This document shows positions 7,469 through 34,858 of a stretch of 64,000 bases of DNA, in pieces. This DNA comes from Candidatus Zhuqueibacterota bacterium. Lineage in GTDB: Bacteria; Zhuqueibacterota; Zhuqueibacteria; Thermofontimicrobiales; Thermofontimicrobiaceae. A program made the position numbers and the translations under genes. The stretch spans positions 21,801 to 85,800 of the forward strand of contig JBMOPW010000003.1 in assembly GCA_049322915.1 (NCBI GenBank), written 5' to 3'. The stretch's first letter is position 1, and each line of letters starts with the position of its first letter. The notes beneath the pieces were generated by a model that made no database searches, had not been told where the DNA came from, and saw nothing but the letters and a program-made list of their open reading frames with translations.

Positions 7469-10180
7469 TTAATTTGCATGGGAGTCATGGACTCCAATTT
7501 TTTTTCGAAGTTCAATCGCTGCAAAGATGATGACGCCAATTCCGACGGCAATCCCCAAATCCATGAGCGACAACGGAGTGGTTTTAAAGAACGCCTGCAT
7601 CGGACCAAGGTACATCACCAGCAGTTGCAGCCCGGCCACCACAATCACCAGCACCATCATCAGCGGATTGGAGCGCAACCCAATGGTGAAGAGAGAAGCA
7701 TGGCTCGAACGGGCGGCGAGCGCCTGGCCGATCTGGGCAAACGCCAGAGAAGTGAAGACCATCGTTTGCCACGTGGCGCGACCATTGAAATAATACAGGG
7801 CCCCGACGATCAAAACAAGCGCACCGATGAGAGCGCCAATCCAGGCGGTCTGCTTGCCGGCGCCCCGGCTGAAAACTCCCTCCCGCGGTGAGTAGGGCGG
7901 CCGTCGCATAGTATCTTTTTCAGCGGGTTCGACGCACATGCCGAGTCCCAGCAAGCCGTCCGTGAGCAGGTTCAACCATAAAAGCTGAAGTGGCAGAAGT
8001 GGGATGGGCTTGCCCAGAAACGGCGCGAGCACCATGACCAGCACTTTGCCGATGTTGCCGGCGACAGAGAACTGCACGAATTTTCGAATATTGTCGTAGA
8101 TAGTGCGGCCTTCCTGCACGGCCTCCACAATCGTAGCGAAGTTGTCATCGAGCACCACCAGATCCGAGGCCTCTTTGGCCACATCCGTCCCGGTGATGCC
8201 CATGGCCACACCAATATCGGCCTGACGCAGGGCCGGCGCATCATTGACCCCGTCGCCGGTCATGGAAACAATGTCCCCGTTTTCCTGGAACGCCTGAATG
8301 ATGCGAAGCTTATGCTCCGGAGCCACGCGCGCGAAGATATTCACATCGCTCAGTTCTTTGCGCAATTCATCGTCACTGAGTTTTTCGAGATCAGCGCCGG
8401 TCAGCGCCCGACCGTTGTCGGAAATTCCCAGTTGCCGTGCGATTTCGACCGCGGTCAGCGGGTGATCGCCGGTGATCATTACCGTGCGGATCCCGGCGGT
8501 TTTCGTGAGGCGCACCGCATCGCGCACCTCCGGCCGGGGTGGGTCGATCATTCCGAACAGCCCGACAAAGATGAGGTCGCTTTCTTCGTCAGTGCCCGGG
8601 CTATCAGGGAGCCGACTCAGGGTCCGATAGGCCACACCCAGGACGCGCATTCCTTTTCGCGCAAAGCCTTCATTGGTATCCAAAATACGCTTCCGCCACG
8701 TGTCGTTCATGGTTTCAATTTGATCACCTGTCTGAACGCGGTTGGCAATATTCAACAAACCATCGGCGCTGCCTTTGGTGAAAGCGATGTAATGATCGCG
8801 ATGAACATTCACGCCGACCAGATTTTGGAGCCGATCGTGATTCAATTGGTGAATGGTAGTCATCCGCTTGCGCGAAGAGTCGAAAGGCAATTCAGCGATT
8901 CGGGGGAATTCGGCGTCGAGCGATGATTTCCAGTAGCCCATCTGAGCCGCAGCAGCCACCAGCGCGCCCTCGGTGGGGTCGCCGATCGTGTGGTAACTGG
9001 AGTCATTTTTCTCTATCAGACGGGCATCGTTGCAAAGCGCGCCGCCCAACACCAGCAATGAGAGAGGCGACTGGACCGGAATGCCCTGGCTGCGGGAAGT
9101 TTGAACCGAATCGCCTTTCATTTCTTCGGTCAGGTCCAATTCATGGCCGGCGACGTCCAACACGACGACGGTCATTCTGTTCTCCGTCAGCGTGCCTGTT
9201 TTGTCGGAGCAGATGACAGTGACAGAGCCCAGGGTTTCGACGGCCGGCAGTTTGCGGATCAGCGCATTGCGATGCAGCATGCGTTGCGCGCCCAATGCCA
9301 GCGTAATGGTGACGACTGCCGGCAGGCCTTCCGGCACAATGGCAACAGCGACCGAGACGGCCGTCAGCAGCATGTGCTGAATTTGGTCGCCGCGCCAAAT
9401 TCCCAGGATAAAAACAAACGCAGCGATGGCGGCTCCCACGCCAGCCAGCATTTTGCCCAATTGATCGAGACGCCGCTGAAGGGGCGTCTGCTCTTTGCCA
9501 GCCTGCTGAATGAGATTGGCGATTTTCCCCAATTCGGTCTGCATGCCGGTGGCCACCACGAGCGCGCGGCCGCGTCCCTGAGTGACCACGGTGCCCATGT
9601 AGCCCAGATTGCGACGATCGCCAAGGGGAAGGCCATTGCCAATCATCACCTGGGTCTGCTTTTCAACCGGTTCGGACTCCCCGGTCAGCGTGGCTTCCTG
9701 AATTCTGAGATTCACTGCCTCGATCAATCGAACATCGGCCGGGACGACGTTGCCGGTTTCGAGTTGTAACACGTCGCCGGGGACGAGTTCGCGCGCGGAG
9801 ATTTCCAGCAGTGCGCCGTCCCGAGTCACCCTCACTGTGGGCGTGGACATGCGTTTGAGTGAAGCGATCGCTTTTTCAGCCCGATATTCCTGAATGAATC
9901 CGAGAATCGAATACAGCACGACAATGGCGAAAATGGCGATGGCATTTTTAGAATCACCGAGAATAGTGGCGGCGACAGCCGCGGCGATGAGAATCAGCAC
10001 CATAGTGGCCGTGAGTTGTTCCCAGAGAATCCCGAGCGGAGTTCGGCCGCCTTTTTCAATGAGTTCGTTATGACCAAGTTGTGCCAGGCGGGATTGCGCC
10101 TCAGCGGCGCTCAGGCCATTGCGCTCGTGCGAATGTAGTTCGTGGATTGCGTGTCCGATTTCAGTGAGATGCCAATTCAT
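7469..10180 (-). CDS. Cation-transporting P-type ATPase (P2-type, Ca2+/Mg2+-like)
   Basis: 903-aa ORF with phosphorylation motif DKTGTLT and hinge motif [11 protein letters not shown]; N-terminal cation-ATPase region; ATG with GGAG upstream. Confidence 0.9.
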
Positions 10181-10333
10181 TGTGACTCCGGATTTTGTGA
10201 GAATTATCGTGGTCGCTTATATCAGTAACAGGTTGAGGGAGAAAGCGCCCGCGGCTATAGCCCGGGTTCTCTTCGCCAAATCGACTCACCACTCTGAACA
10301 GCGCGCTATTCAGATTATAGCCGAGACAGAAAA

Positions 10334-12220
10334 TCATTTTATGACTGTCAGTTTATACCACTGAGCACCCCTGCAAGTTTCGATGCGATACAGGTAAACG
10401 CCGGAAGCGACAGATTGACCTGCGTTATTTTGCCCGTTCCAGAGCACGCGGTTCCAGCCGGGATTCGCGATGAGATTGGGCCAGGATTTTATCAGTTGGC
10501 CCAGCGGATTGAAAATCTGCACGTTTGCCGGGCCCGGTCGTTCAGCATAAAACTGAATGGTCGTGGCGTTGTTGAGCGGATTGGGATAGTTGAAGCTGGT
10601 CTCATATTTTTCAGGCAAGGCATCAGGAACAATTTCCACGGCCGTTGAATTGGGCAACCATTCCATCAGTTTTTCCCGCTCCATCTCGCCGCCGCTGGAG
10701 CTATTGGCGACATTGTACGTCCACCACATCCCGGTGACGCCGCCGCCGCTGATGGTGGTTGAAAACGCCTGGTTGGACATGGCGCCGAAATAACGCGCCT
10801 GGTTGCCGGGATATTCTTTATCATCCCAGGTGCAGTCAATCGGAACCCATCCGTAATTGGGAAAATAGACCTGCTGCCAGCGATGAAAGATGCGGTCTTC
10901 GTACGGGAGGTCGTCGCGAAGATGCCCGCCAGCTTCCATTCGCGCCGGGATGCCGGCGGCGCGGCACAGCGCCACAAACAAAAACGTGTATTCAGAACAG
11001 GAGCCGGTGCCGCGGCTGAGCACTATCGGAGCGGTGTCCCAACTGCTGTCGTTGATGTATTCGATGTGCGAAATCACGTAATCGTGGATATTGCGCACCT
11101 GCCAGTACAGATTGCTTTCATCGCCAATGGCCTCTTGCGCTGCATTACGAATGACAGGATGGGTTATGTCGTAATACTCGCCGTCCGGCGTGTACATGGT
11201 GATGATGGATTGCGGAATGTCCGTCAATTCGCCAACACTGTCAGGGTGAAGGAAATAGCGGATGTTGTACAGCGTGGCCGGCACAGACCACTGGTACAAT
11301 TTTTCTTCGCCCGCCGGAACGGACTCTTCGTAATAGGCAATTTGTTGACCGAAGTAGTCAGTATAAAAAGTGTGCGGTTCATCCCTGAACTGAAGCGTAT
11401 CTTCCAATTGCTGGTAGACGGCTTCGAACGGGCAGGCTAAGTAGGTCTGCAAATTCATCACGCTGGAGCCGACATTTTTGATGGTGACAGTGTACCTGAT
11501 TTTCACCAGAAATGGATCGGTGATTTGATATTTTTCTGTTCCGGCGATGGAGATTTTATAAATCCGGTCGTGCTCGTAATCGGCATTCCAGAGGAAATGG
11601 CCGTCGAAAGCCAGTCCGTAGGAATAGGTACCCGGCGCATTCAGGATAGTGAAAATCCTGCCGCGATCTGTTTCCAGCCGGTAGATTTCATCTTTATCGT
11701 AATCCGCGCACCATAGATATTCGCCGTCCCAGGCTAATCCGCGATTGTAGCCGCCGGGCGAAATGAGCGTGTCGGCGTAGCTGCCGGTTTCCGGGTTTAG
11801 TTTGAAGATGCGCTTCGCCTGGCTGTCCACGTACCAGAGAAACTCGCCGTCCCAAGTTAGCCCGCGGGGATTTTCGGTTCCCACCGGAACAATTTTGGTG
11901 ATGGAACTATCTTCGACGTCGATTTGGCAGAGCTGGTCGTGCCCGTTATCCGAGCACCAGAGGAACTGGCCGTCCCAGGCCAGGCCGTTTATCGTGGCGT
12001 TTGCCGGGCTGGGCAGGGAATAGAGTACCTGTCCGGTCTGCGGATCGATCTTGTAAATTTGGTTTGTGCCAATATCCGCATTCCACAAAAATTCGCCGTC
12101 CCAGGCTAACCCGGTGGGGCGACTCCCGGGCGAAGGGAAAAAATCCAGGACAGCACCCATCTGGGCGTGACCAGTTGAAAAGAGAAAAAGAATAATCCCG
12201 ATGAGCTTCATTGGTTTCAT
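10334..12220 (-). CDS. Secreted beta-propeller repeat / transglutaminase-like cysteine protease-fold protein with T9SS C-terminal sorting domain
   Basis: Signal peptide; 5-6 repeats of GLAWDG(E/Q)FLW; transglutaminase-like core GSCSEYTFLFVALCRAAGIPAR with downstream H and D (HRWQQVYFPNYGWVPID); C-terminus NYPNPLNNATTIQF...GVYLYRI. Confidence 0.75.
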   Translation of the reverse strand: MKPMKLIGIILFLFSTGHAQMGAVLDFFPSPGSRPTGLAWDGEFLWNADIGTNQIYKIDPQTGQVLYSLPSPANATINGLAWDGQFLWCSDNGHDQLCQIDVEDSSITKIVPVGTENPRGLTWDGEFLWYVDSQAKRIFKLNPETGSYADTLISPGGYNRGLAWDGEYLWCADYDKDEIYRLETDRGRIFTILNAPGTYSYGLAFDGHFLWNADYEHDRIYKISIAGTEKYQITDPFLVKIRYTVTIKNVGSSVMNLQTYLACPFEAVYQQLEDTLQFRDEPHTFYTDYFGQQIAYYEESVPAGEEKLYQWSVPATLYNIRYFLHPDSVGELTDIPQSIITMYTPDGEYYDITHPVIRNAAQEAIGDESNLYWQVRNIHDYVISHIEYINDSSWDTAPIVLSRGTGSCSEYTFLFVALCRAAGIPARMEAGGHLRDDLPYEDRIFHRWQQVYFPNYGWVPIDCTWDDKEYPGNQARYFGAMSNQAFSTTISGGGVTGMWWTYNVANSSSGGEMEREKLMEWLPNSTAVEIVPDALPEKYETSFNYPNPLNNATTIQFYAERPGPANVQIFNPLGQLIKSWPNLIANPGWNRVLWNGQNNAGQSVASGVYLYRIETCRGAQWYKLTVIK

Positions 12221-12504
12221 GGTGATATCTCAGTTTTAAGCCCACGGAACACACGAAAGAGCACGAAAAAATTGACATCAATGGGTTCAATTTAAAAAGG
12301 GGCTAAAGTCCAAAATAACGGAAGAATTCTATTCCCCGACTTAAAAGTCGGGGCTATTCAAATTGTCCAACATTTAAATATTCAATAGAATAGCCACGTC
12401 ATTTATGACATGGAAGCCTTTTAATGCTTTTTAAAGTAGACGCGTAAATCTTCAGCGTTCTTTCGCGTGTTCAGCGGGCAATAATTTTGACTTTAAATTA
12501 AAAT

Positions 12505-12553
12505 CGCCAATTACACACGGTGTGAAAAAGGCTTTGTGCAATTGGCGAATGCG
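12505..12553 (-). terminator. Candidate intrinsic terminator downstream of the BNR T9SS gene
   Basis: Stem cgccaatt(12505-12512)/aattggcg(12540-12547) with structured interior, followed on the minus strand by an A/T-rich tract. Confidence 0.35.
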
Positions 12554-12579
12554 TATTTAGCGTAATACATTCCGGCAAA

Positions 12580-14280
12580 TTACTTCATCAACACCATCCG
12601 CTTGGACTGCGTCATGCTGCCGGCGGTGAGTTGATAGAAATAAACACCGGACGGCAGATTGGCTGCGTTCCAGGTAACGCCTTTGAATCCTGCGTCCATG
12701 GGTTTATCGATCACAGTAGCCACTTCCTGTCCCATTTCATTGAACACCTTCAGCGTCACATGCGCGCGCTCAGTCAGGTCGAATGTTATGCTTGTTGTCG
12801 GATTGAACGGATTGGGGTAGTTCTGATGCAACTGGAAGCTCTCCGGCGTCAGAGTGGTGACGTTCTCTTTCACACGGGTAGCGCGGGCTTTGACGGTGTC
12901 GGTCGGAACGCCAAGATACATTCCCATATCTGCATCCTCTGTATGATGGCGGTAAAGAATGTGCAGTTTATCCGTTGCATATTTTGCCATACCGTTGGGT
13001 GCATGTCCGGACCATTGATCCAATACAGAAACCGGGCCGTGCCAGGTCGATCCGTTATCATCGGAATAGATGACCATGATGTTATAATTGAAATTGGCTT
13101 CGTCGCCCATGGCGCCTGTGGTATCTACTACATCGAAATAAGCGTAGTAGAGCGTCCCGTCCGGGCCGATGGCAGGTTCATTCATTTCATACTCTTCCAC
13201 GTCTGAAGGCCAATCACCCCAGGCTGCTATTCCATTGGGTAGCAATGTTGGAATTGCGATTTTGGTAACATCCCAGGTACTGCCATCGAAACGGAAGTCG
13301 TAGCCATAATAAGGAACCGGGAATGTGCCATCGCTCTCCAATGTATCGTAAGAGACGGCAAAGATGTGCCAGTTACCGGCCCCATCGACCATAGGTGAAC
13401 TGAAATTGCGATAGTTATCGGCATCGGAATTGTATAGAGTTTCTGCTCCGGGGATAACCGCCGGGGCTGTCCAGGTCTGGCCCAGGTCGTCGGAGAAGCA
13501 GTAAATATTGGTCCAAATATCTGTTTCCAATAATTTCGCGCCGGCAGAGACCATCACTGTGTTGTTGGGTCCCATTCCAACTCCTAAACCACGGGAAGAG
13601 AAATCAAAAACATAATTTGATTTGCCCACATCGTCCGTATCTTCGGAAATGGGCACTTTGGGCCGGGACCATGTCATACCGGCATCCTTGGTGACGTAAT
13701 AATACAATCCATCCCCTGGCTCGCCGGTATGCCATCCGCCAACTCCCCAGATATTTTCGTCTTCTGGCGAAACCGCAATGGACAGATAGCTTGAGTGAAG
13801 TACAGTATCTGCCGTGCCAACATCGTCAATAAAATAATTGACGAATGCACCGCCACCCCAACCGGCGACGTCTGTTGCCACCACAGGTATACGAGTTTTG
13901 TTAACAGAGGCATTTCGATCCTCGTAAGCAACAATTGGCGTAGTTGAGATACCACACACCGAAGCGTAACGGGCGTCCATAATAGGACCAACCCCGAAGT
14001 TAAGCATTTCGTGAATCTGCCAAGTGGCTCCGCCATCGATCGAAGTTGCGGCTGTTATTTTTCGTGGATCCGGATCGGTGCTATTATAACGATACCACGC
14101 AACAACCAGGTTTCCTGTTGTCGGATCACAGTAAATCTGATTCTGAACACCCCTGTAAATACCGTTATAGAGTGTAGTGTCCACCCGAACCGGTTCAACG
14201 ATGGGCACAGGTTGTGCCATCACAAAGCCCACGCAGAGCACGCTTAAAACAAAACTGAGGATTGTAACTTTTTTAATCAT
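12580..14280 (-). CDS. Secreted BNR-repeat (sialidase/exo-alpha-sialidase-fold-like) protein with T9SS C-terminal sorting domain
   Basis: 566-aa ORF; signal peptide; Asp-box repeats SIDGGATW, SDDLGQTW, SDDNGSTW; C-terminus QNYPNPFNPTTSITFDL...GVYFYQL; AGGAGA RBS. Confidence 0.75.
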   Translation of the reverse strand: MIKKVTILSFVLSVLCVGFVMAQPVPIVEPVRVDTTLYNGIYRGVQNQIYCDPTTGNLVVAWYRYNSTDPDPRKITAATSIDGGATWQIHEMLNFGVGPIMDARYASVCGISTTPIVAYEDRNASVNKTRIPVVATDVAGWGGGAFVNYFIDDVGTADTVLHSSYLSIAVSPEDENIWGVGGWHTGEPGDGLYYYVTKDAGMTWSRPKVPISEDTDDVGKSNYVFDFSSRGLGVGMGPNNTVMVSAGAKLLETDIWTNIYCFSDDLGQTWTAPAVIPGAETLYNSDADNYRNFSSPMVDGAGNWHIFAVSYDTLESDGTFPVPYYGYDFRFDGSTWDVTKIAIPTLLPNGIAAWGDWPSDVEEYEMNEPAIGPDGTLYYAYFDVVDTTGAMGDEANFNYNIMVIYSDDNGSTWHGPVSVLDQWSGHAPNGMAKYATDKLHILYRHHTEDADMGMYLGVPTDTVKARATRVKENVTTLTPESFQLHQNYPNPFNPTTSITFDLTERAHVTLKVFNEMGQEVATVIDKPMDAGFKGVTWNAANLPSGVYFYQLTAGSMTQSKRMVLMK

Positions 14281-14571
14281 GTCGCTCTCCTTTCAAAAAA
14301 GAATTGTTGCTACCCGGGCCAGATCCGGTTCGACAGTTTGCTGAAACGTCATTCGATGGAATTCGGGATGGATGGCATAATCAAGCTGTTCGAAAATCGG
14401 GCGTGCCGCAATTTTGTTTGACCCGAGAATCAATTTCTTCAATGAACAGAAATTGAAGAAATCCGAATTTACAGTTCGGGCAGCCTGTTTTGAATCCGTT
14501 CTTTGCGTCGATCTGATTTGACCTGGTAGTATGAATTTAAGTGAATTGTTTATCTAAAAAAAATAGACATC

Positions 14572-15984
14572 TCAACTGCCGGCGATGGTTTCATCATCTC
14601 GGATTTTAGGTGCAATAGCAAAGCCGGTGAATCCATAAATCAATGCGAAGATCAGTCCCAGATAACACATAATCGCCCAGGGCGCATAGGCAGTGGTTGG
14701 CACGTCCAGTGTCCCGGCCATAAAAACGCCGGCCATGCTCCAGGGAATGAGCGGCACAACGACGGTGCCGGAATCCTCCGTGGTTCGGGATAAATTTTTA
14801 GCCGCCAATCCTCGCGCCCTGAACGCCGGTGCGAATAATTCACCCGGTATGAGAATTGAGAGGAACGAACTTCCGGTCATCAGAGCGACTGCAATACATG
14901 AACTGACAACAGCAGCGATGAGCGCGCCGGTGCTTCTGGCCACTTTCAACAGGCGATCTAAAATCACATCCAGCATGCCGGCTTTCTGGACGATGCCGGC
15001 GAAAGAAAAAGCGCAGAATGCAATGAGCGTCACATGCATCATCCCGGCCATACCACCTCGGCTGAAAAGATTGTCCACGGATTCCACGCCAGTCCGGGAT
15101 TCATAGCCAATCGTGATGGCCGTTGCGACCTGTTTCAAAGTGATGTCCTGAAAAATGAGGGCCAGGATCGTCGCCAGCAGTGTGACGATGAGCATTCCGG
15201 GGATGGTCGGTTTTTTTCGAATCGCAAAATAGAGAATCCCTATCGGAGGCAACAACAATAGCCAATGAAAATGGAAATGAGTCTGAATGGTATTTGAAAT
15301 CAGATCCATTTGATCGGATTTCAAAATGCCGCTATCGAAAGATCTGCCCAAAAAATAATACACAACGAGACCGATAATCCATGCTGGCGTTGTTGTCCAC
15401 AGCATGTGTTTAATATGATCGAACAGATTGCTCTTCGCGGCAATGGGCGCTAAATTGGTCGTATCAGAAAAAGGCGAAATTTTATCTCCGAAATAGGACC
15501 CGGCGACGATGGCGCCGGCAGCCTGAGCCAAGGGAATGCCCATCCCCTGAGCTATGCCCATGAATGCCACCCCCATGGTCCCGACTGTTCCCCATGATGT
15601 CCCGGTAAGTGCAGAGATAACGCTGCACACGAAACAGGCTGTCACCAGAAATAATTTCGGAGAGATCGTTTTCAACCCGTAATAGACGAGCATGGGAATG
15701 GTGCCGCAGGCGATCCACGAGCCGATGAGCAATCCCACACAAATGACGATTAACATAGCAGGCATGGCTTTGGAAATGCTGACCACGATTCCTTCTTCCA
15801 ATTCTCGCCAGGTATATCCCAGCCGAAGCGCGATCAGTCCCGAGACAAACGCAGCGGCAATGAGGAGTATCTCCGCATTGAGCCTGAATATTCCATACCC
15901 GATTCCTAAAAAAAGTGCTATGAAGTTAAGCGGAAGCAGCGCTTCAAAAAAAGTAGGTTTCCGTTTGGTGCTCGTGGATGTCAT
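14572..15984 (-). CDS. nhaC: Na+/H+ antiporter, NhaC family
   Basis: 470-aa polytopic membrane protein with length and helix pattern characteristic of NhaC-family antiporters. Confidence 0.75.
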   Translation of the reverse strand: MTSTSTKRKPTFFEALLPLNFIALFLGIGYGIFRLNAEILLIAAAFVSGLIALRLGYTWRELEEGIVVSISKAMPAMLIVICVGLLIGSWIACGTIPMLVYYGLKTISPKLFLVTACFVCSVISALTGTSWGTVGTMGVAFMGIAQGMGIPLAQAAGAIVAGSYFGDKISPFSDTTNLAPIAAKSNLFDHIKHMLWTTTPAWIIGLVVYYFLGRSFDSGILKSDQMDLISNTIQTHFHFHWLLLLPPIGILYFAIRKKPTIPGMLIVTLLATILALIFQDITLKQVATAITIGYESRTGVESVDNLFSRGGMAGMMHVTLIAFCAFSFAGIVQKAGMLDVILDRLLKVARSTGALIAAVVSSCIAVALMTGSSFLSILIPGELFAPAFRARGLAAKNLSRTTEDSGTVVVPLIPWSMAGVFMAGTLDVPTTAYAPWAIMCYLGLIFALIYGFTGFAIAPKIRDDETIAGS

Positions 15985-16015
15985 GAAAATTCCATTTCAT
16001 CTTTGTGAAAGATAC

Positions 16016-17629
16016 TCATTCGAGCGGTGACCATTCACCGTATTGTTCGATGTAAATGCGACATTTATCTTTGGATGTCCATCGATTATTGAAGTTGTAT
16101 GTCCAGTCGAGATAATCGGAGCCCCCGCCGCCAGTGGTAGTAATGATATAGCGGCAGGCGATATTGCCAATGCCGGCTGCCTGTTCGCCGGGTCTGGCTT
16201 TGTCGCCTTTGTTGGCGTCGAAGGGGATCCAGCCGTAATTTGGCAGATACACCTCGCACCATCGATGATAGACTTCGTCGAGGCTGGCGTCGTCGCCCCG
16301 TTGCGATACAGCGCCGACATAACGGGCAGGAAGCCCTGCGGCGCGGCACAGCGCGATGAATGAAAATGAATATTCGGAACAGGATGCCGTGCCTCGTTTC
16401 AAGACGGTCGTTGCAGTGTTCCACCCGCCGACTGGCTTTAAATTGTACGTGAGATTTTCGATGAGATAATTAAAAATCTTCCGCGCCATCCAGTAGGGAT
16501 TCTGCTCGTCCCCAACGATTTTTTTTGCCAGGTTCTGAATGAAGGGTTCGTGGACGTTGAGTTTCTTTCCATCAGCAAGATACGTTTTCAATATTTCAAC
16601 CGGCACACTTTCGAGTGCGCCCACTTTAACCGGATCAATGAAATATTCGGCCGCCCAGATCGTGGCATCAATGGTCATCGTCGCCCGAAAAAATTCCCCG
16701 CTTTTAAGATTTTTCACATTGAAATAAGCGACCTTTTGGCCCCATTGGTCAGTCAGGATTTTTTCCGGTTCAGGGACAAATGTGACGGGGCGAGACAGTT
16801 GCTGGTTATCCCTGTTTTCCGGGATGGCGAGATACACATCTGCCGAGATGACGGTGCCTGGTCCGTAATTTCTGAAATCGATGGTATTCTCCAGCCGTTG
16901 TTTCTTGGGGGACAACTTTGTCAGAAACACCGGATCATCGATTTTTATCCTATAAATTTTGTCCGCTTGATAATCCACATTCCAGAGAAAAGCGCCATCC
17001 CAGGCGAGTCCGCGGGCGTATTGGTCCGGTGCGTGAATGGACCCGATGACCATGCCGCTGTTCCGATCCATGCGATAAATAGCATTCTCGCCCCGATCGG
17101 CGATCCACAAACAGTGCCCGTCAAAAGCCAATCCGTCAGGATCGTCGGCTGGCGATGGGAAATTGTGAATCATCATGCCGTCCTCAGGGTCAAGACTGAG
17201 CACCAGATCCAGTTTGTCATCGACGACCCAGAGCAATGTACCATCCCAGCAAATGTCTTTGGGATTATCGGTGCAGGCTTCGATCACGCGTTCAGCGATT
17301 CCGGTTTCAATATTCATTCTGTAAAGAAATCGCTCCTTATCATCCATCGCCCAGAGATGCGTGCCATCCCAGGCCAAACCCGTCGGACTGAAACCGGGCG
17401 CGGGAAAAGTGTGAATGACGAGGCCATTATTCGGATCGATCTGATACAGATTATCAGTTTTTCGGTCAGCAACCCAGAGGTATTTTCCGTCAAACGCAAG
17501 CCCCGTCGGATGGTCTCCGGGTGAATTCATTGTGTATACGATTTCACCAACAAAAGCAAAACTCACCTGTGAGCAAAGGCTCATCCAACTGAGGAAGCCA
17601 AGCATAAACCATATTCTCAAGGTTTTCAT
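16016..17629 (-). CDS. Beta-propeller repeat / transglutaminase-like protein, paralogue of 10334-12220 lacking the T9SS C-terminal domain
   Basis: 537-aa ORF; signal peptide; GLAFDGKYLW/GLAWDGTHLW repeats; core GTASCSEYSFSFIALCRAAGLPAR plus HRWCEVYLPNYGWIPFD; GAGGAG RBS. Confidence 0.75.
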   Translation of the reverse strand: MKTLRIWFMLGFLSWMSLCSQVSFAFVGEIVYTMNSPGDHPTGLAFDGKYLWVADRKTDNLYQIDPNNGLVIHTFPAPGFSPTGLAWDGTHLWAMDDKERFLYRMNIETGIAERVIEACTDNPKDICWDGTLLWVVDDKLDLVLSLDPEDGMMIHNFPSPADDPDGLAFDGHCLWIADRGENAIYRMDRNSGMVIGSIHAPDQYARGLAWDGAFLWNVDYQADKIYRIKIDDPVFLTKLSPKKQRLENTIDFRNYGPGTVISADVYLAIPENRDNQQLSRPVTFVPEPEKILTDQWGQKVAYFNVKNLKSGEFFRATMTIDATIWAAEYFIDPVKVGALESVPVEILKTYLADGKKLNVHEPFIQNLAKKIVGDEQNPYWMARKIFNYLIENLTYNLKPVGGWNTATTVLKRGTASCSEYSFSFIALCRAAGLPARYVGAVSQRGDDASLDEVYHRWCEVYLPNYGWIPFDANKGDKARPGEQAAGIGNIACRYIITTTGGGGSDYLDWTYNFNNRWTSKDKCRIYIEQYGEWSPLE

Positions 17630-18166
17630 CCTTCTCTCCTCAAAAAATGAAAATCAAAGCGATTCTTATAACAGGTATTGGGCCATGCGCGTTGCAAAGA
17701 AAGTAGTGAATGAATTATATGTAAATCGAGTTGGTTCACACTCAAAATACAAGTCAATCATCGTATGCGTTTTCAATGATGATGCCAAAATGTATGGCTG
17801 GGTAAAACAAAAAAATATCCAGGGGAAGAAGTCGCTTCGCTAACCGGGAGCTATTAGCGACAACCTGAATCCCATCTCATCCGGATAGTCGAGGTCGAAT
17901 AGTCCAGGTCGGAAATTGGCTGCCTGTATTTAAAATCCAAAGAGCATCATTTCATTCAAAAACGATTCGTATCATTCAAAGGAACGAAAATTTTCAGGTT
18001 TCCCCGGTAAAATAATATTGAAGTGAAAAGTTACCTGGTTGTTGAGATTTTATGCAGGCATTATCAAAAAAAAATAATGCTAAACAAATTGAAATATAAG
18101 CCGATTAATTAATAGTAATACTATATACTTAAATTGGCCCACGATGCGTGCGAAGAAAGGTATTGT

Positions 18167-19042
18167 CTATCTAAAGTAATCGGTGTGCACATCGAAATCA
18201 AAATTTGTCTTGATCCCTTCGAGTGAAGATAAGACTTCGAGAGAATGGGACCGATCTTTTAATCCAATCCCCGTTGCCAATGCGCACACAAATGTTAGAA
18301 TAGCGCTGGCAGTATTGATGAAGACAATATTTTCAGACGAAACTGGAAACACAACATCCGAGAATTCTGCGATGGGTGCGACCAATTTATCTGTAATCGA
18401 AATGACCCTAACGCCTTTTGAATGGGCCATTTCAGCAGCTTCGATCGTGGCTAACGTGTATGGCACCAGGCTGATAGCAATGATGGTATCTTCCTTTTTG
18501 ATGGCGAGAATTTGTTCATGAAAGCTGAATCCACAAGAAGTAAACGCTGCCGCTTTCAAGGTGATCCGATTCAGAAAATAAGCAGTCAGTTGTGATAGAT
18601 GCATGGAAATCCCGGCGCCTATAGTATAAATTTTGGAAGCGGAAACGCACAGATCAACTGCCTTATCAAAAGAGGCTCGGTCGAGTTTATCAAACGTAAG
18701 ACGTATATTTTCTATTTCATTGTTGGCAATGACGGACACAAAATCTGATTTAAGGGGTGCATTATCCAACACGTCCTTGAATTTTTTGGTTGCAGTAAGA
18801 TTATCGCGAAGCCTATCTGAAAGTTCTGCTTTTAATTCAAGGAATCCTTTGTAGCCTAATGCCTGTGCCAAACGAACAATTGTCGCTTTACCAACTTTCA
18901 ATTTATCGGCTATTGTATCGATCGATGAAAAGGCAATTTCTTCAGGATGGTCAATAAGGAACTGGGCGATTTTTTTTTGATTCTTTGTGAGTTGCGAAAT
19001 ATTATTTAGGATGAGTTGCTTATAGGCAGAAATTTCAGGCAT
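18167..19042 (-). CDS. RpiR/MurR-family transcriptional regulator (HTH_6 + SIS domain)
   Basis: 291-aa ORF; N-terminal HTH (IDTIADKLKVGKATIVRLAQALGYKGFLELK) and C-terminal SIS sugar-phosphate binding domain. Confidence 0.85.
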   Translation of the reverse strand: MPEISAYKQLILNNISQLTKNQKKIAQFLIDHPEEIAFSSIDTIADKLKVGKATIVRLAQALGYKGFLELKAELSDRLRDNLTATKKFKDVLDNAPLKSDFVSVIANNEIENIRLTFDKLDRASFDKAVDLCVSASKIYTIGAGISMHLSQLTAYFLNRITLKAAAFTSCGFSFHEQILAIKKEDTIIAISLVPYTLATIEAAEMAHSKGVRVISITDKLVAPIAEFSDVVFPVSSENIVFINTASAILTFVCALATGIGLKDRSHSLEVLSSLEGIKTNFDFDVHTDYFR

Positions 19043-19450
19043 TTAATTCTCTTGAGCTAAACAATTATTTCATTACAAAATTATAATGAAACTATTTTCT
19101 CAAAAATGTATTAAATATTTTTTAAAATGTCAAGGTATATTTTTATATTAACAAGAATTTGGCAGTTAACGATCTCGACATGATTGTGAAGTTGTATGAA
19201 TAGGCTTCGTTAGTCTCGTCAAGAATTAAAGAATGAAATAGTTTTAATTATAATTGGAGGAACGTAAGTATTTCAGAAGTGACTATCTGTATTAGATTGC
19301 AAAAAAGTAATCTAAGATTTTGCCATTGAATAAAATTAAGATAATTAAAATTAATTTTTTAGATAATAAACCACCAATGTATTTCAATGAAAAAATGAAT
19401 TCAAAATTCAATATGAGTCTCGGAGGTGAAATAGCCAGCAGACATTTCTC

Positions 19451-19479
19451 TTGACATAGACAAAAAAAATATTTATATT
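19451..19479 (+). promoter_or_regulatory. Consensus sigma70-type promoter (TTGACA-N17-TATATT), distal copy upstream of the M23 peptidase gene
   Basis: Exact -35 at 19451-19456, 17-nt spacer, -10 at 19474-19479. Confidence 0.5.
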
Positions 19480-19579
19480 TATCCTTCATCAAATCAGCTG
19501 AATGTGAATGTTTTTTTTAAAGTAAGCTGATAATGCAGGAAGAAATAGTGATGACTTTTACAAAAAATTAATTTTTCTC

Positions 19580-19608
19580 TTGACAAACGGTGATTTAGTT
19601 TGTATATT
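19580..19608 (+). promoter_or_regulatory. Consensus sigma70-type promoter (TTGACA-N17-TATATT), proximal copy about 110 nt upstream of the M23 peptidase ATG
   Basis: Exact -35 at 19580-19585, 17-nt spacer, -10 at 19603-19608; shares the preceding tctcttgaca context with the distal copy. Confidence 0.55.
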
Positions 19609-19725
19609 TCTCGTTGCCCAATTTTTAACTCACCAAAATAATTATGTTTCCCTGCCCGGTATGAGGTAATTTATGCTGCTCCCTTTGGTAAAGTCACCAC
19701 TATTAATCAAAACGAGGAGATTGAT

Positions 19726-20649
19726 ATGCGTGACAAGCGTGTAAAGCTGATCTATTTCTCTCTAAGGGGGTCAGAGGTTAAGGACATTGATCTTGGTTGG
19801 AAGAAAGTCTTTCTTTATTTTTCAATGTTATCGGCAATATTGATCATTCTTGTTGCCTTAGCGATTTCACTTTTCACAGATATTTATCATGATACTCGTT
19901 TATCTTCACTCAAAAAGACGAACGAAGTATTGAAATCGCAATTGGGAGAAATGCGTCAGTCGATCGACGTTATCGAAAATAAGGTAAAAAAATTAGAGGC
20001 GAATGCTGACGAAGAGAGAATGATTGCCGGTCTTGACCAAATCGATAAAGAGACGCGGAATTTAGGGGTTGGTGGTCCAAAGGCTGCAATTTTGGATTAC
20101 GAATCGGATGTCCTTCCGCGCGATTTAAGAAAGGATGTTTCTGAAACCCGATCCCTGATTGAGCAGATTGAGAGAAAAATTCAGCTAGTAGAAGAGAATA
20201 AAGAGGAAGTTGAGCATACGCTCGAAACGAAATCTGAAGGCGTCAAACGTCTTCCAACGATCAGACCTGTGCAGGGAGGGAGGATAACTGATCGGTTTGG
20301 AACTCGTATTGATCCTTTTACAGAAAAACCAAGACCCCATAGGGGAATTGATATCGCTGCAAAAATAGGTACTCCAGTTCTTGCAACAGCATATGGGGTT
20401 GTTACAAAAACAGTGCATAGCTATTTACCCAATAAGAATTTTGGGAAATATGTTGAAATTGATCACGGCAATGGTTATATAACGATGTACGCACACCTTG
20501 ACGAGATTTATGTCCGAGTGGGTCAGAAAGTAAAAAGGTGGGAAGAAATTGGAGCAGTCGGTAATACCGGTCGATCGACGGGGCCTCATTTGCATTATGA
20601 AGTAAGAATAAATGATGTTGCGGTTAATCCGTTGAATCACATTTATTAA
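19726..20649 (+). CDS. M23-family metallopeptidase with N-terminal membrane anchor and coiled-coil (EnvC/NlpD-like)
   Basis: 307-aa ORF; LytM motifs HRGIDIAAKIGTPV, VEIDHGNGYITMYAHL, GNTGRSTGPHLHYEV; GAGGAG RBS. Confidence 0.9.
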   Translation: MRDKRVKLIYFSLRGSEVKDIDLGWKKVFLYFSMLSAILIILVALAISLFTDIYHDTRLSSLKKTNEVLKSQLGEMRQSIDVIENKVKKLEANADEERMIAGLDQIDKETRNLGVGGPKAAILDYESDVLPRDLRKDVSETRSLIEQIERKIQLVEENKEEVEHTLETKSEGVKRLPTIRPVQGGRITDRFGTRIDPFTEKPRPHRGIDIAAKIGTPVLATAYGVVTKTVHSYLPNKNFGKYVEIDHGNGYITMYAHLDEIYVRVGQKVKRWEEIGAVGNTGRSTGPHLHYEVRINDVAVNPLNHIY

Positions 20650-30811: not shown

Positions 30812-30871
30812 TTCCTTAAAATTCCCCCTTGCCACTATTTTGCTCAGGAGTAATTGCGAAGGGATTGTCAA

Positions 30872-32764
30872 ATGATTAAAACGCTAAGACTCGCGCTGCT
30901 GTTCTCTTTGTTAATGGTTCCAGTGTCGCTGGCTCAACTCTCCTCCAGGTATTTCATTGATTATTCAGAAAGTGGAGAACACCTTTTCTTTCACGATGCC
31001 GGCGCCAACCATATTTTCATCGATGTGAATCCGGCGTCGCGGGACAGAGAGTCCATCTTTTTTATCTCGCGGTACGCAGATGTTGATACCGTGCACTTTT
31101 CCGTCTCAACACCATGGCCCCAGCCGCTGTATTCCTATGATAAAATCCACTGGTATCCAATCGACACCGGAAAGAACGCGGACGGGCGTTTTCATTTCCA
31201 ATTCAAATTCAGGAAAGATCATGTCTACGTCGCTCTGAACCCGCCGCCCGGTTACGAGCGTCCCGGCGCGCCGCTCGTCCAGAACCTCCCTACATTTCCT
31301 CCGTACTACACCTACGACAAGATTGTCAATTACGTGAACTCGATTGCCGGCCATCCATTCATCGAGCGGGTGATAGTGGGACAGAGCATTCAGGGTCGCG
31401 ATATTTTTATGCTCACAGTTACGGATCCCTCCATCCCGGACTCGCTGAAGAAATCGGTCTGGCTGCAATTTCGGGTACACGGCGATGAAATGGCGCAGAG
31501 TTATATTTTCGAAGGGCTGGTGAATTACCTGCTATCCGGGGATTCGGCTTCGGTTGCGCCGCAGGCATTGCAGCGCATTGTGTTCAAACTCATCCCGGTC
31601 ATCAACCCGGATGGCGTCGTGAATCGAACCCGCGGCAATTCCAATGGCGTGGACATGAATCGGATCTGGGTGGATTCCACCAATCACGAAGCTGAGGAGC
31701 CGGAAGTGCGTCTCGTGCACGACGTCCTGGACGACTGGATTTTGAATCACGGGCATAAGGTTAATTTTGCGCTCGACAAGCATGGCTGGGGCAGCGGCCA
31801 CGACGGAGGGTACCGCACTCTGGCCAGCGTGGCCGGCAATCCCTACGTTTTCGATCAAGTCACATTTCTCCGGCATTTGATCAATTACGATCCCTGGCAG
31901 CGATGGAACGATTGGACGTTCAGCGAAGGCGCCTGGGGGATGTTTCGGCTGGCCCTGTTCCGGCAGCATGGGCTGAACATCCTCACGTGGGAGACAACCA
32001 GCGGCCTTCGTTACGATGGCTCGGAGACCACCATCGACGATTTGAAGGAAGAAGGCGCGGCGTTCATCGACGCGCTGTATCGGTATTTGTTCCATGTCTA
32101 TTTCATCGATGGGAAGAAAAATGACGTCAGCGTTTACTCGCCGGGGGACTCGGTCTTCATCCGTCTCGAAGAAGCAGACGCCGCCAATCAGATCGAAAAA
32201 GACAAATGCCGCGTCATCCTCACCAGCTCGCTGAATGACACCGAGACGGTCGCGCTCAGTTTTGATCCCGGTGCACCCGGCGTGTATTACAGCCCTTCGG
32301 GGCTTCCGTTGAGCCCGACAACGCCTGTCCCGGAAGACGGCCTGTTGCAGATCGAACCGGAGAAACCCATTCGTGTCACGTACCAGGATGTGGATTTTCC
32401 CGGCGATTCGTGCAGCCAGGATATTCTCGTTTCTGCCTATTCCAGCGTCGCTCCGCGCCATGATTCGCCACTGCCCCAAGCGTTCGCGCTCTTCCAGAAT
32501 TACCCCAATCCATTCAACGGCGGAACGACGATTCAGTGTTACATTCCGGCATGGGCGCAACCCTCTCCGTTCACGCTGGCCATTTTCAATGTGCTGGGAA
32601 AAGAAGTGACGCGGCTTGCTGACCAAACCCTGGCGCCGGGGTATCACACTTTTCGCTGGGACGGCCGCGATGCCAATGGGATCAATGTCGCCAGCGGCCT
32701 CTATTTCTATTCGCTGAGCCACGCGTCCCAAACGTCGGTCAGGAAGCTGCTGCTCATCCGGTAA
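30872..32764 (+). CDS. Secreted M14-like zinc carboxypeptidase with T9SS C-terminal sorting domain
   Basis: Signal peptide MIKTLRLALLFSLLMVPVSLAQ; zinc-site motif RVHGDEMAQSYIFEG (HxxE); C-terminus FQNYPNPFNGGTTIQ...GLYFYSL; the 442-aa antisense ORF is discounted. Confidence 0.65.
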   Translation: MIKTLRLALLFSLLMVPVSLAQLSSRYFIDYSESGEHLFFHDAGANHIFIDVNPASRDRESIFFISRYADVDTVHFSVSTPWPQPLYSYDKIHWYPIDTGKNADGRFHFQFKFRKDHVYVALNPPPGYERPGAPLVQNLPTFPPYYTYDKIVNYVNSIAGHPFIERVIVGQSIQGRDIFMLTVTDPSIPDSLKKSVWLQFRVHGDEMAQSYIFEGLVNYLLSGDSASVAPQALQRIVFKLIPVINPDGVVNRTRGNSNGVDMNRIWVDSTNHEAEEPEVRLVHDVLDDWILNHGHKVNFALDKHGWGSGHDGGYRTLASVAGNPYVFDQVTFLRHLINYDPWQRWNDWTFSEGAWGMFRLALFRQHGLNILTWETTSGLRYDGSETTIDDLKEEGAAFIDALYRYLFHVYFIDGKKNDVSVYSPGDSVFIRLEEADAANQIEKDKCRVILTSSLNDTETVALSFDPGAPGVYYSPSGLPLSPTTPVPEDGLLQIEPEKPIRVTYQDVDFPGDSCSQDILVSAYSSVAPRHDSPLPQAFALFQNYPNPFNGGTTIQCYIPAWAQPSPFTLAIFNVLGKEVTRLADQTLAPGYHTFRWDGRDANGINVASGLYFYSLSHASQTSVRKLLLIR

Positions 32765-32878: not shown

Positions 32879-34858
32879 ATGAATTCAATTCGCTCCCGAC
32901 GAACCGTCTGCGCGGCGATGGTGATTGGTTTTTTTCTCATCCATGCCGGAATCGCCCAGGAAAAACGCTCCCTGCTCAGCAGCGCCTATCCACCGTCTGC
33001 ATTGCCCAATCTGCTGCTTCAGAAATCCGATTGGCTACCATTCCCCACTGCGGCGCAGCGCGATGTCTGGCTCAACTTGCCGGACACGTTGCGCGCGGAT
33101 TTGCTGAAGCGGGGAGAGCGGTTGTTAAATTACCAGTGGCAGGCGCTTCCGGCCACCGTCTTTTTGGAATTCTCCCGAAATGGCAATCGAAGCCATTATC
33201 AGAATTTGCGCGATCAGCGGCGTCATGCGCTGGCCGATCTGGTGCTTGCTGAATGCATCGAACGTGACGGCCGATTTTTGGACGATCTGGTGAATGGCAT
33301 CTGGACAATTTGCGAGGAAACCTACTGGGGTGTGCCAGCCCATCTCAGCATGCAGCGACGCGGCTATGGGCTGCCGGATCCCAACGAGCCAACCGTTGAT
33401 CTGTTTGTAAGCGAGACCGCAGGTCTGCTGGCCTGGACCTATTACCTGCTTCACGAGCCACTCGGGGACTATTCGCCGCTCATTCAGGAGCGGATTGAAT
33501 CAGAAATTCAGCGGAGAATTCTCACACCGTGTCTGGAGCGCGATGACTTCTGGTGGATGGGATTCAAACCGCAGCATGCTGTCAACAACTGGAATCCCTG
33601 GATCAATTCAAACTGGCTGACGTGCGCGCTCATCATCGAAAAAGATGAGCAGAGAAGGCAGCAATCCGTTGCCAAAATCATGCGGAGCCTTGATGTCTTT
33701 ATCGACAGCTACCCGGAGGATGGCGGCTGCGATGAAGGGCCGGCGTACTGGAACCGCGCAGGGGCGTCCCTGTTCGACTGCCTGGAACTCCTCCATTCCG
33801 GCAGCGCAGGCCGAATCGATATTTACGATCAACCGCTCATTCGGGCCATGGCGCGATACATCGTTCACGCGCACATCGCTGAAAATTATTTCATCAATTT
33901 CGCCGATGCCCCGGCGATTGTGAATCTTGAGGCAGACCTCACGTATCGTTTTGGCCGCCGCATTCACGACGACCAGCTTGCCGATTTCGGCGGCTATATC
34001 GCTGACTTGCAGCGAAAGCGCGGGCATGGTATTTCAGGGAGTTTGGGTCGGCAATTGCCGGCCATTTTCAATGATGAAACGCTCGCCAATGCGCTGGCAA
34101 AGCCACCGCTATTGCGGGATGTCTGGATGGAAGGCAATCAGGTGATGGCAGCGCGATCCGAGGCAGGGTCAGCTCGCGGATTGTACGTGGCGGCCCAGGG
34201 CGGGCATAACCAGGAGAGTCATAATCACAACGATGTCGGAAATTTTATTGTCTATCTCAATGGCAAACCCATGATCATCGATGTCGGCGTGGAAACATAT
34301 ACCCGGAAGACATTCAGCGACGAGCGGTATGAAATATGGACCATGCAATCCGGCTATCACAATCTGCCAACGGTCAATGGCGTCATGCAAAAAGATGGTC
34401 GCCAGTTCGCTGCCCGGGATGTCGTTTACGATGCCAATGACGACTTTGCTCAACTGACGCTGGATATTGCCGGAGCGTATCCGGAAGAAGCGGGCGTCAC
34501 GTCATGGATTCGCTCCATCCGTTTGAACCGCGGCGATAATGTCGAGATTACCGAACGCATTGAACTGAACGCGCCGTCCGCCGATGTCGTCCTGAATTTG
34601 ATGACTGTTTGCCGCGTGGAGAACAAGTCCGACGGCGCTTTGGTGTTGTGTCATCCTGATTCGCAGCCACCGAATCACAAGCTTCAGCTCCATCTTGTAT
34701 TCGATGCGGAAAAATGGACAGCCAGTTCCGAGACGATTTCCATAACAGATTCTCAGTTGCAGGCGTTCTGGGGTGACACAATTTCCCGGATTCAATTGAA
34801 GGCGAACCATGCCATCAGCCGGGAAACCGCCGTCTATCGGCTGCGGCCTGTGAATTAG
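32879..34858 (+). CDS. Heparinase II/III-like (polysaccharide lyase-like) protein
   Basis: 659-aa ORF; signal peptide; C-terminal segment GGHNQESHNHNDVGNFIVYLNGKPMIIDVGVETYT resembles the heparinase II/III family; GAGGTGG RBS. Confidence 0.7.
   Translation: MNSIRSRRTVCAAMVIGFFLIHAGIAQEKRSLLSSAYPPSALPNLLLQKSDWLPFPTAAQRDVWLNLPDTLRADLLKRGERLLNYQWQALPATVFLEFSRNGNRSHYQNLRDQRRHALADLVLAECIERDGRFLDDLVNGIWTICEETYWGVPAHLSMQRRGYGLPDPNEPTVDLFVSETAGLLAWTYYLLHEPLGDYSPLIQERIESEIQRRILTPCLERDDFWWMGFKPQHAVNNWNPWINSNWLTCALIIEKDEQRRQQSVAKIMRSLDVFIDSYPEDGGCDEGPAYWNRAGASLFDCLELLHSGSAGRIDIYDQPLIRAMARYIVHAHIAENYFINFADAPAIVNLEADLTYRFGRRIHDDQLADFGGYIADLQRKRGHGISGSLGRQLPAIFNDETLANALAKPPLLRDVWMEGNQVMAARSEAGSARGLYVAAQGGHNQESHNHNDVGNFIVYLNGKPMIIDVGVETYTRKTFSDERYEIWTMQSGYHNLPTVNGVMQKDGRQFAARDVVYDANDDFAQLTLDIAGAYPEEAGVTSWIRSIRLNRGDNVEITERIELNAPSADVVLNLMTVCRVENKSDGALVLCHPDSQPPNHKLQLHLVFDAEKWTASSETISITDSQLQAFWGDTISRIQLKANHAISRETAVYRLRPVN

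Follow-up and report, generated by a model that had tools for sequence, protein, structure and literature searches.

Two paralogous propeller-transglutaminase-fold proteins, predicted to be surface displayed and periplasmic, in a conserved gene locus of Candidatus Zhuqueibacterota

Introduction

A 64,000-nucleotide stretch of contig JBMOPW010000003.1 from a Candidatus Zhuqueibacterota bacterium, analyzed here as a whole and referred to as the window, contains two related genes, A and B, whose products join a region of short repeats to a transglutaminase-like domain. The two genes flank those for a BNR/Asp-box protein and an NhaC-family transporter, all on the minus strand, an arrangement described in the initial annotation of this DNA and borne out by the open reading frame (ORF) coordinates (Table 1). 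What might these proteins do, and does their placement around the same two genes mean that they act together? A secreted protein-modifying or protease module had been suggested. Zhuqueibacterota, formerly KSB1, is one of many bacterial groups in which such proteins occur; transglutaminase-fold proteins are abundant in bacteria, and few have a known reaction. We report that A and B belong to the PF01841 superfamily and that each combines its catalytic domain with a five-bladed propeller. We tentatively propose a role for them in a lineage-specific uptake locus.

Results

A and B carry an intact catalytic triad in a transglutaminase fold

A and B are members of the PF01841 superfamily. The Transglut_core profile scored 73.2 bits for A and 85.6 bits for B (cut-off 23), and both have the papain-like transglutaminase fold by which membership of this superfamily is judged. 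An AlphaFold2 model of B, based on 33 homologs (pLDDT 91.3, pTM 0.87), is composed of a signal-peptide helix, a propeller, a beta-sandwich (residues 236-329), and an alpha/beta catalytic domain (residues 344-537). A consists of the same four parts followed by a type IX secretion system (T9SS) tail, and the two proteins align from end to end with 38% identity over 536 amino acids (BLASTP, E 1e-126), which confirms that they are paralogs. B is a 100% match to an NCBI entry named 'transglutaminase domain-containing protein [Candidatus Zhuqueibacterota bacterium]'.

Residues C417 ('ASCSEY'), H455 ('YHRWCE'), and D471 ('PFDAN') of B line up, residue by residue, with Cys, His, and Asp in two transglutaminase-like proteins of known structure, a 'putative cysteine protease' of Cytophaga hutchinsonii from structural genomics (PDB 3isr) and TgpA of Pseudomonas aeruginosa (PDB 6g49). 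The counterparts in A are C408, H446, and D462, and the triad was invariant in all 234 aligned relatives. The Cys-His-Asp core had already been read as intact in the initial annotation, and no misalignment with the catalytic positions was seen. The sandwich and core of B align jointly to 3isr with a query-normalized TM-score (TMq) of 0.66-0.68; 3isr, however, lacks the propeller, shares 17% identity with B, and has no assigned function. TgpA resembles A and B in having an exported PF01841 domain, but it likewise lacks a propeller and is structurally a much weaker match (TMq 0.39). Its conserved triad lies within residues 396-467, and its purified periplasmic domain has transglutaminase activity (PMC3507681); according to PMC10318531, the protein is attached to the inner membrane. 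Matches of the catalytic domain to TAL effectors were discarded as spurious, as they stemmed from an 'ALCRAAGL' helix.

The propeller is shaped like a glutaminyl cyclase

Both proteins contain exactly five [WF]DG..LW repeats, located at residues 37, 79, 120, 161, and 202 in A and at residues 43, 84, 125, 166, and 207 in B. The period is about 41 amino acids, which corrects the earlier reading of five to six repeats with a period of about 45. In shuffled versions of A and B (20,000 each), the motif GLxWDGxxLW was found at most 0.001 times on average and never more than once. In the model of B, 20 strands within residues 29-229 make up five four-stranded blades, with an N-terminal strand completing blade 5. 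Sequence profiles place the blades in the NHL/PknD/YVTN/YWTD class; in the PDB, the PknD-derived 'Pizza' designs ranked first (E 5e-23), ahead of Vgb lyase and the YWTD propellers of LRP. The DUF6923 repeat (PF21959), a family without known function, scored 40.9 in A and 33.0 in B (threshold 27). Profile, model, and fold thus agree with the beta-propeller character first assigned to the repeats, and no known non-propeller motif was encountered.

The propeller most resembles in shape the type I glutaminyl cyclases of plants and bacteria, which also have five blades (PF05096; PDB 3mbr, 3nok, 3nol, and 2iwa; Foldseek TMt 0.78), although the blades of A and B are much closer in sequence to the NHL/PknD/YWTD class. 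Real cyclase sequences were taken from the PDB with an approximate consensus as bait, aligned, and compared by hhalign with the propeller profile of the family, whereupon the blades fell into register with 94.8% probability. The cyclase active site, which we take to comprise papaya F22, Q24 (Glu in bacteria), F67, E69, W83, W110, N155, and W169, in a numbering that agrees with the 2faw sequence, is not kept in this register. The position of the bacterial catalytic Glu and papaya Q24 is occupied by Thr42, which is at least 90% conserved in the family. At the E69 position, B has T, A has N, and Aminicenantes members have E. W83 corresponds to the invariant Asp of LWxxD (D96), W110 to K/R, N155 to P164, and W169 to R179. 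PF05096 gave no match in A or B at E ≤0.1, and no cyclase was present among the 60 profile-versus-PDB matches listed. Judged from these alignments, the propeller is cyclase-shaped and not a cyclase, and glutaminyl cyclase activity was rejected despite the strong fold match. Precomputed PF05096 matches exist for a few distant family members (P0152, P0160, P0197, and P0211).

Some relatives bear the label 'streptogramin lyase' at the Joint Genome Institute (JGI). This label and that of a lactonase were also rejected: virginiamycin B lyase profiles stayed under their cut-offs (PF24684, 46.7 in A and 35.3 in B versus 50; NF000022, 27.1 and 21.3 versus 600), and the propeller has five blades rather than the seven of Vgb lyase (PDB 2z2n).

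Conservation of the propeller is nearly limited to the repeated structural motif, and the catalytic domain is rich in invariant charged residues (R412, E419, R429, R436, R444, D446, D451, and R456). This pattern argues for a propeller that serves as a scaffold or in binding, coupled to a specific active site. Tandem arrays of this five-bladed GLxWDGxxLW propeller were also found in giant proteins that have no match to the transglutaminase-fold half: P0378 (2,161 amino acids, 8 matched stretches), P0443 (4,675, 14), P0471 (6,267, 10), and P0430 (5,914, 7). These tandem copies suggest a mobile binding module, which is possibly adhesin-like.

A and B are predicted to reach different compartments

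Both proteins appear to be exported, as proposed earlier, by Sec-type signal peptides read from their sequences. The N terminus of B shows a basic start, a hydrophobic core, and a small-x-small cleavage motif by eye, and its homologs have the same layout. In the BNR protein, cleavage was read as VMA↓QPV. A type A sorting domain (TIGR04183, cut-off 23) was detected in A with 33.8 bits and in the BNR protein with 37.9 bits and is absent from B, in agreement with the earlier statement that only the larger paralog carries a T9SS C-terminal domain. PF18962 remained below its cut-off in A (24.2 versus 27) and exceeded it in the BNR protein (34.5). The sorting domain of A holds NYPNP...TxIxF and GVYLYRI motifs. 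Lacking a further sorting signal, B should remain in the periplasm, where we predict it to act, and A is probably displayed on, or released from, the cell surface via the type IX system. No core T9SS gene was identified within the window.

Tailed and untailed forms are ancient paralogs in a large family

When grouped at 90% identity, the sequences retrieved with either paralog form over 2,500 clusters, and relatives are encoded by at least 552 GTDB species. The domain combination, first regarded as unusual, is thus common; databases already list it under generic names, but it is unstudied, and a literature search found no paper on the propeller-transglutaminase-fold architecture. The family is conserved in length, with identities of 50-55% between phyla, and an exhaustive HMMER search of 1.84 billion representatives returned 637 at E ≤1e-30. 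Members were found in KSB1, Aminicenantes, Zixibacteria, Ignavibacteria, Bacteroidales, Marinimicrobia, WOR-3, Calditrichota, and others, and they are concentrated among uncultured anaerobes from sediment, hot-spring, and digester habitats; all 80 loci listed come from metagenome-assembled genomes (MAGs). The two halves also occur alone, the propeller in tandem in proteins of 1,000-6,000 amino acids and the sandwich plus core as proteins of 300-450 amino acids similar to 3isr, which are frequent among the relatives.

Among the 234 aligned members, 43 are extended at the C terminus by 60 residues or more. These tailed forms group in a nearly pure neighbor-joining clade, in which they account for 42 of 43 leaves, and mean identities are 57% between short forms, 50% between long forms, and 36% between short and long forms. 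The near-pure clade and this identity pattern imply that A and B belong to two old orthologous groups and did not arise by recent duplication. On these sequence grounds we regard A and B as ancient paralogs and the tailed and untailed forms as separate ancient clades. Short forms occur in many phyla, some of which are not named as T9SS carriers in the cited literature, and the named long forms listed are from KSB1, Calditrichaeota, and Bacteroidales.

A five-gene order is conserved in one lineage

The gene order RpiR-short form-NhaC-BNR-long form is shared by the window and the related loci L005, L084, L085, and L087, which lie on Zhuqueibacterota/KSB1 and Calditrichota contigs, and it persists even in loci whose long form shares just 44-57% identity with A. 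NhaC directly follows the short paralog in L003, L004, L005, L084, L085, and L087, and the regulator gene keeps its position upstream of the short form in relatives. L003 and L004 retain only RpiR-short form-NhaC, L090 lacks RpiR and the short form, and L088 and L089 retain the BNR gene and a receptor gene set without a transglutaminase-fold gene. BNR-family clusters were found repeatedly on the same contigs as long-form clusters. The window itself holds the five-gene core only, with a P-type ATPase gene after A.

The receptor set is a trio that follows the core in L084, L085, L087, and L090 and stands directly after the BNR gene in L088 and L089. It comprises a TonB-dependent receptor with CarboxypepD_reg and Plug domains, a large, uncharacterized cargo of 940-1,060 amino acids that lacks Pfam domains and whose C terminus forms a T9SS-like tail, and a PorV/PorQ-family protein (NF033709, 207 bits versus 90). 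A PorV-family gene dedicated to a single cargo locus is unusual.

The transporter scored 498.6 bits with the NhaC profile TIGR00931 (equivalog cut-off 370) and below the cut-off for ArcD (NF052307, 336.6 versus 650). The regulator matched PF01418 (69.9 bits) and PF01380 (65 bits) and stayed under every NCBIfam equivalog cut-off. The product of the BNR gene had been described as a BNR/sialidase-like T9SS cargo. Its T9SS domain supports the cargo assignment. The BNR label is weaker, since BNR_2 (PF13088) and BNR remained below their Pfam cut-offs (29.6 versus 31.4 and 25.9 versus 27), although the protein has four S/T-x-D-x-G-x-T-W Asp-boxes (residues 80, 197, 263, and 406). Sequence similarity to sialidases is local only (residues 177-271, E 2e-5). 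The BNR family is narrow: it comprises about 40 clusters, every one of which has a T9SS tail.

Neighboring ORFs were clustered from 81 loci of diverse phyla. No neighbor family recurred in more than 9 of them, and no family-wide partner emerged. The idea of a module put forward in the initial annotation therefore holds for the five-gene order in Zhuqueibacterota/KSB1 and Calditrichota and does not extend to the other phyla. Neighbors in the Aminicenantes loci and in one Bacteroidetes long-form locus are unrelated. The most common neighbor, present in 9 of the 81 loci, apparently all Aminicenantes-type (L001, L009, L012, L014, L016, L020, L023, L024, and L028), is a class V aminotransferase-fold, pyridoxal phosphate (PLP)-dependent enzyme with a twin-arginine translocation (Tat) signal peptide (MATTRRDFLKGLG...), whose gene precedes the short form at position -1 in 8 of these loci. 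The Tat signal suggests a periplasmic PLP enzyme.

Table 1. Positions of the genes, domains, and catalytic codons discussed (window coordinates unless a locus is named)
Feature	Position	Strand	Evidence
A, long paralog, 628 amino acids	10334-12220	-	ORF; Pfam, NCBIfam; BLASTP vs B
A, T9SS type A C-terminal sorting domain, residues 545-628	10337-10588	-	TIGR04183; tail sequence
A, catalytic codons C408; H446; D462	10997-10999; 10883-10885; 10835-10837	-	
BNR/Asp-box protein, 566 amino acids	12580-14280	-	ORF; TIGR04183; Asp-boxes
BNR protein, T9SS sorting domain, residues 488-566	12583-12819	-	TIGR04183, 37.9 bits
NhaC-family transporter, 470 amino acids	14572-15984	-	ORF; TIGR00931
B, short paralog, 537 amino acids	16016-17629	-	ORF; Pfam; AlphaFold2 model
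B, signal peptide, residues 1 to ~25, MKTLRIWFMLGFLSWMSLCSQVSFA↓FVGEI	17555-17629	-	Read by eye
B, five-bladed beta-propeller, residues 28-230	16940-17548	-	20 strands in model
B, beta-sandwich domain, residues 236-329	16643-16924	-	Models; aligned jointly with core to 3isr
B, transglutaminase-fold catalytic domain, residues 344-537	16019-16600	-	PF01841, triad
B, catalytic codons C417; H455; D471	16379-16381; 16265-16267; 16217-16219	-	
RpiR/MurR-family regulator (HTH_6 and SIS domains), upstream of B	18167-19042	-	PF01418, PF01380; synteny
A, signal peptide ending ...A↓Q	12161-12220		
BNR protein, signal peptide ending ...A↓Q	14212-14280		
M14 peptidase gene; its signal peptide ends ...A↓Q	30854-32764		
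Heparinase II/III-like gene; its signal peptide ends ...A↓Q	32879-34858		
Amidase_3 gene; its signal peptide ends ...A↓Q	34877-36661	-	
Receptor, large cargo, and PorV-family trio in L084	10994-17765		
Trio in L085	8377-15768		
Trio in L087	13072-19731		
Trio in L088	10804-17660		
Trio in L089	11105-17976		
Trio in L090	13025-19728		
Aminicenantes-type PLP enzyme in L001	6511-7836		

Transcript layout and base composition

The gap between B and NhaC is 31 nucleotides, and the two genes are probably cotranscribed. Gaps of 291 nucleotides between NhaC and BNR and of 359 nucleotides between BNR and A contain terminator-like hairpins at 14479-14463 and 12413-12394. Scanning for sigma-70 promoters and terminators gave counts near those expected from shuffled sequence (21 versus 16.0, standard deviation 4.8, and 14 versus 9.2, standard deviation 2.9) and lends weak support to separate transcripts; the promoter model may not suit the host phylum. 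A scan of positions 10000-19700 with Rfam found nothing above the gathering score.

The gap between RpiR and B (17630-18166) is 537 nucleotides long and AT-rich, compared with 26-117 nucleotides in L003, L084, L085, and L087. It gave no Rfam match, and its sole ORF is a 103-amino-acid plus-strand frame (17532-17843). GC content is strongly uneven when positions 18001-20000 are compared with 7469-12220: about 41% in the RpiR and M23 peptidase genes and 34.7% in the bin 18001-20000, about 50% in B, NhaC, and BNR, 53% in A, and 57% in the P-type ATPase gene. This could reflect gene transfer, reported to be frequent in Zhuqueibacterota (PMC11683472), or a mosaic assembly.

Discussion

How could two transglutaminase-fold enzymes in different compartments serve one locus? 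In the explanation that we favor, A at the surface and B in the periplasm are thiol hydrolases of amide bonds and belong to a lineage-specific uptake locus. We give this explanation as a whole a little less than an even chance. Our confidence in the architecture is much higher, and that in chemistry and substrate much lower; hydrolysis rather than transfer, the compartments, the substrate, and a functional link between the genes are all points that we infer. In such a mechanism, His and Asp would activate the catalytic Cys for an attack on an amide carbonyl that forms a thioester, and resolution of the thioester by water would make the enzyme a peptidase, isopeptidase, or amidase, with propeller and sandwich holding a polymeric substrate. 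The gene layout of the conserved locus suggests a sequence of surface attack, uptake, periplasmic trimming, and import. A and the BNR protein would attack an external polymer at the surface, fragments would be taken up and trimmed further by B in the periplasm, NhaC would import the product, and RpiR would sense a downstream metabolite.

Several observations weigh against this explanation. The TonB receptor, large cargo, and PorV-family genes that follow in relatives gave no tblastn match in the 64-kb window. Outside the one lineage the family occurs as a stand-alone gene among unrelated neighbors, so that the locus model cannot account for the family as a whole. The long gaps and terminator-like hairpins imply that NhaC, BNR, and A are probably transcribed separately, which would likely make three transcripts of the four genes. 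The closest structure, 3isr, has no assigned function, and TgpA, the nearest relative with measured activity, behaves in vitro as a transferase and not as a hydrolase. Finally, the SIS domain of the regulator points to a sugar-phosphate signal, a poor fit with a purely peptide substrate.

The TgpA result leads directly to the alternative that A and B are true transglutaminases, in which a Gln-derived thioester would be resolved by an amine of Lys or a polyamine and proteins of the envelope, S-layer, or matrix would be cross-linked, by B in the periplasm and by A at the surface. Fold and triad are indeed those of transglutaminases, the animal enzymes TG2, TG3, and factor XIII have the same sandwich-then-core order, and the TgpA periplasmic domain, active in vitro as a transglutaminase (PMC3507681), is the second-best structural match to the catalytic half (E 5e-8). 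Hydrolases also belong to the PF01841 superfamily, however, among them PNGase, which is found among the structural matches, and the fold alone therefore leaves the chemistry unfixed. Moreover, no candidate substrate protein is conserved beside the gene in the 81 loci, and a TonB receptor and a transporter as neighbors fit uptake better than envelope building. Cross-linking is in our view unlikely. A different chemistry would have A and B act as amidases on glycan-linked or cell wall amides, such as stem peptides, the N-acetylmuramic acid (MurNAc)-peptide link, N-glycan-Asn bonds, or uronamides, so that the locus would harvest cell wall or glycoprotein debris. An RpiR/MurR-type regulator with a sugar-phosphate-binding SIS domain and a locally sialidase-like BNR/Asp-box protein as a fixed partner would fit, an Arg-rich, invariant catalytic domain would suit acidic substrates, and PNGase, a structural relative, is a glycoamidase. 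The PNGase match is weak, though (E 3e-3, TMq 0.23), BNR_2 scored below its cut-off, the regulator failed each specific equivalog cut-off, and the NhaC family is not known to carry amino sugars. The superfamily also includes WbmE, a periplasmic member cited in PMC3507681 for post-assembly modification of the lipopolysaccharide O-antigen, which would be in keeping with a glycan-linked target. Taken together, we consider this amidase role improbable.

Two further alternatives concern the locus and the propeller rather than the reaction. The adjacency could be meaningless, with independent enzymes flanking unrelated genes and the common order reflecting close common ancestry of the contigs. The restriction of the order to one lineage, its reduction to RpiR-short form-NhaC in L003 and L004, the BNR and receptor set without a transglutaminase-fold gene in L088 and L089, and the long intergenic gaps with hairpins would all be expected. 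Yet the order survives down to 44% long-form identity and into contigs labeled Calditrichaeota, and BNR-family and long-form clusters repeatedly share contigs, so that we doubt mere chance of ancestry and rate it as a poor prospect. That the propeller is itself catalytic, either as a type I glutaminyl cyclase in a two-enzyme glutamine-amide fusion or as a streptogramin lyase or lactonase, is largely refuted and extremely improbable. The cyclase fold matches and register, the few relatives with PF05096, and the JGI names speak for it; the replaced active-site positions, the missing PF05096 match in A and B, Vgb_lyase and NF000022 scores under cut-off, and five blades instead of seven speak against it.

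Returning to the uptake hypothesis, Bacteroidota polysaccharide-utilization-type loci offer a close comparison. They combine enzymes at the surface and in the periplasm with a SusC-like TonB receptor, a carrier in the inner membrane, and a regulator. The relatives' loci follow the same logic: besides T9SS cargoes for the surface and a periplasmic paralog, they encode a TonB receptor of CarboxypepD_reg-Plug-barrel type, a transporter, and a regulator. In contrast to Bacteroidota, they have no SusD-like gene, and their receptor scores 56 bits versus 368 for SusC/RagA (TIGR04056); in the locus of A and B, the enzymes are not glycoside hydrolases and the 64-kb window holds no receptor. It is tempting to speculate, building on the amidase alternative, that non-Bacteroidota phyla of the Fibrobacteres-Chlorobi-Bacteroidetes (FCB) group possess an undescribed T9SS-coupled uptake system that dismantles an amide-linked polymer with transglutaminase-fold amidases, not glycoside hydrolases, as its key enzymes, although we regard this extended proposal as unlikely to prove right. 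Surface and periplasmic copies would act with the BNR propeller protein, the TonB receptor, the large cargo, and a dedicated PorV-family protein on a polymer such as cell wall debris or glycopeptides, and a sugar-phosphate-sensing RpiR would close the loop.

Other propeller proteins also differ from A and B. Type I glutaminyl cyclases share the five blades, but their active-site residues are not conserved in A and B, and the C-terminal domain of E. coli YjiK (PDB 3qqz), of unknown function, is not fused to a catalytic domain, unlike the propellers of A and B. New in this work are the description of a transglutaminase-fold enzyme whose five-bladed propeller has the shape of a cyclase but is not one, the split into a periplasmic and a T9SS-displayed clade, and, in one lineage, the placement in a conserved locus with T9SS cargoes and a TonB receptor.

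Nothing here overturns expectations. The size and conservation of the family and its uncultured, organic-matter-degrading hosts justify a biochemical study, and paired surface and periplasmic paralogs with conserved partners constitute a concrete, testable system. If these proteins hydrolyze a component of buried organic matter, they would represent a class of extracellular enzymes so far missing from the carbon and nitrogen turnover of sediments. The analysis also corrects 'streptogramin lyase' and 'lactonase' as misleading automatic labels and illustrates that a propeller can have the shape of a cyclase without being one.

N-terminal glutamine and other exported proteins of the window

The aligned +1 residue after signal peptide cleavage is Gln in 37 of the 43 tailed forms; in the 191 short forms, the eight most common residues at this position do not include Gln. 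An N-terminal Gln as a mark of T9SS cargoes was considered and rejected, as exported non-T9SS proteins of the window and short forms of the KSB1 lineage also expose Gln; it is rather a habit of the lineage. Among the exported window proteins with a readable cleavage site, five of seven have signal peptides ending in ...A↓Q (Table 1), the exceptions being B (SFA↓FVG) and an NAGPA protein. In this Zhuqueibacterota MAG, the 'Q-rule' thus covers T9SS cargoes and non-cargoes alike. The rule has been reported as a Bacteroidetes feature that is not valid across the whole FCB group (PMC5837995).

Other genes of the window encode an N-acetylmuramoyl-L-alanine amidase (Amidase_3) and an M23 peptidase (19726-20649). 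A Peptidase_M14 carboxypeptidase with an Ig-like domain and a T9SS-type tail constitutes a third T9SS cargo, at most 20 kb from the locus of A and B; its listed TTG start is probably too early, and an ATG six codons downstream (MIKTLRLALLF...) is the likely start.

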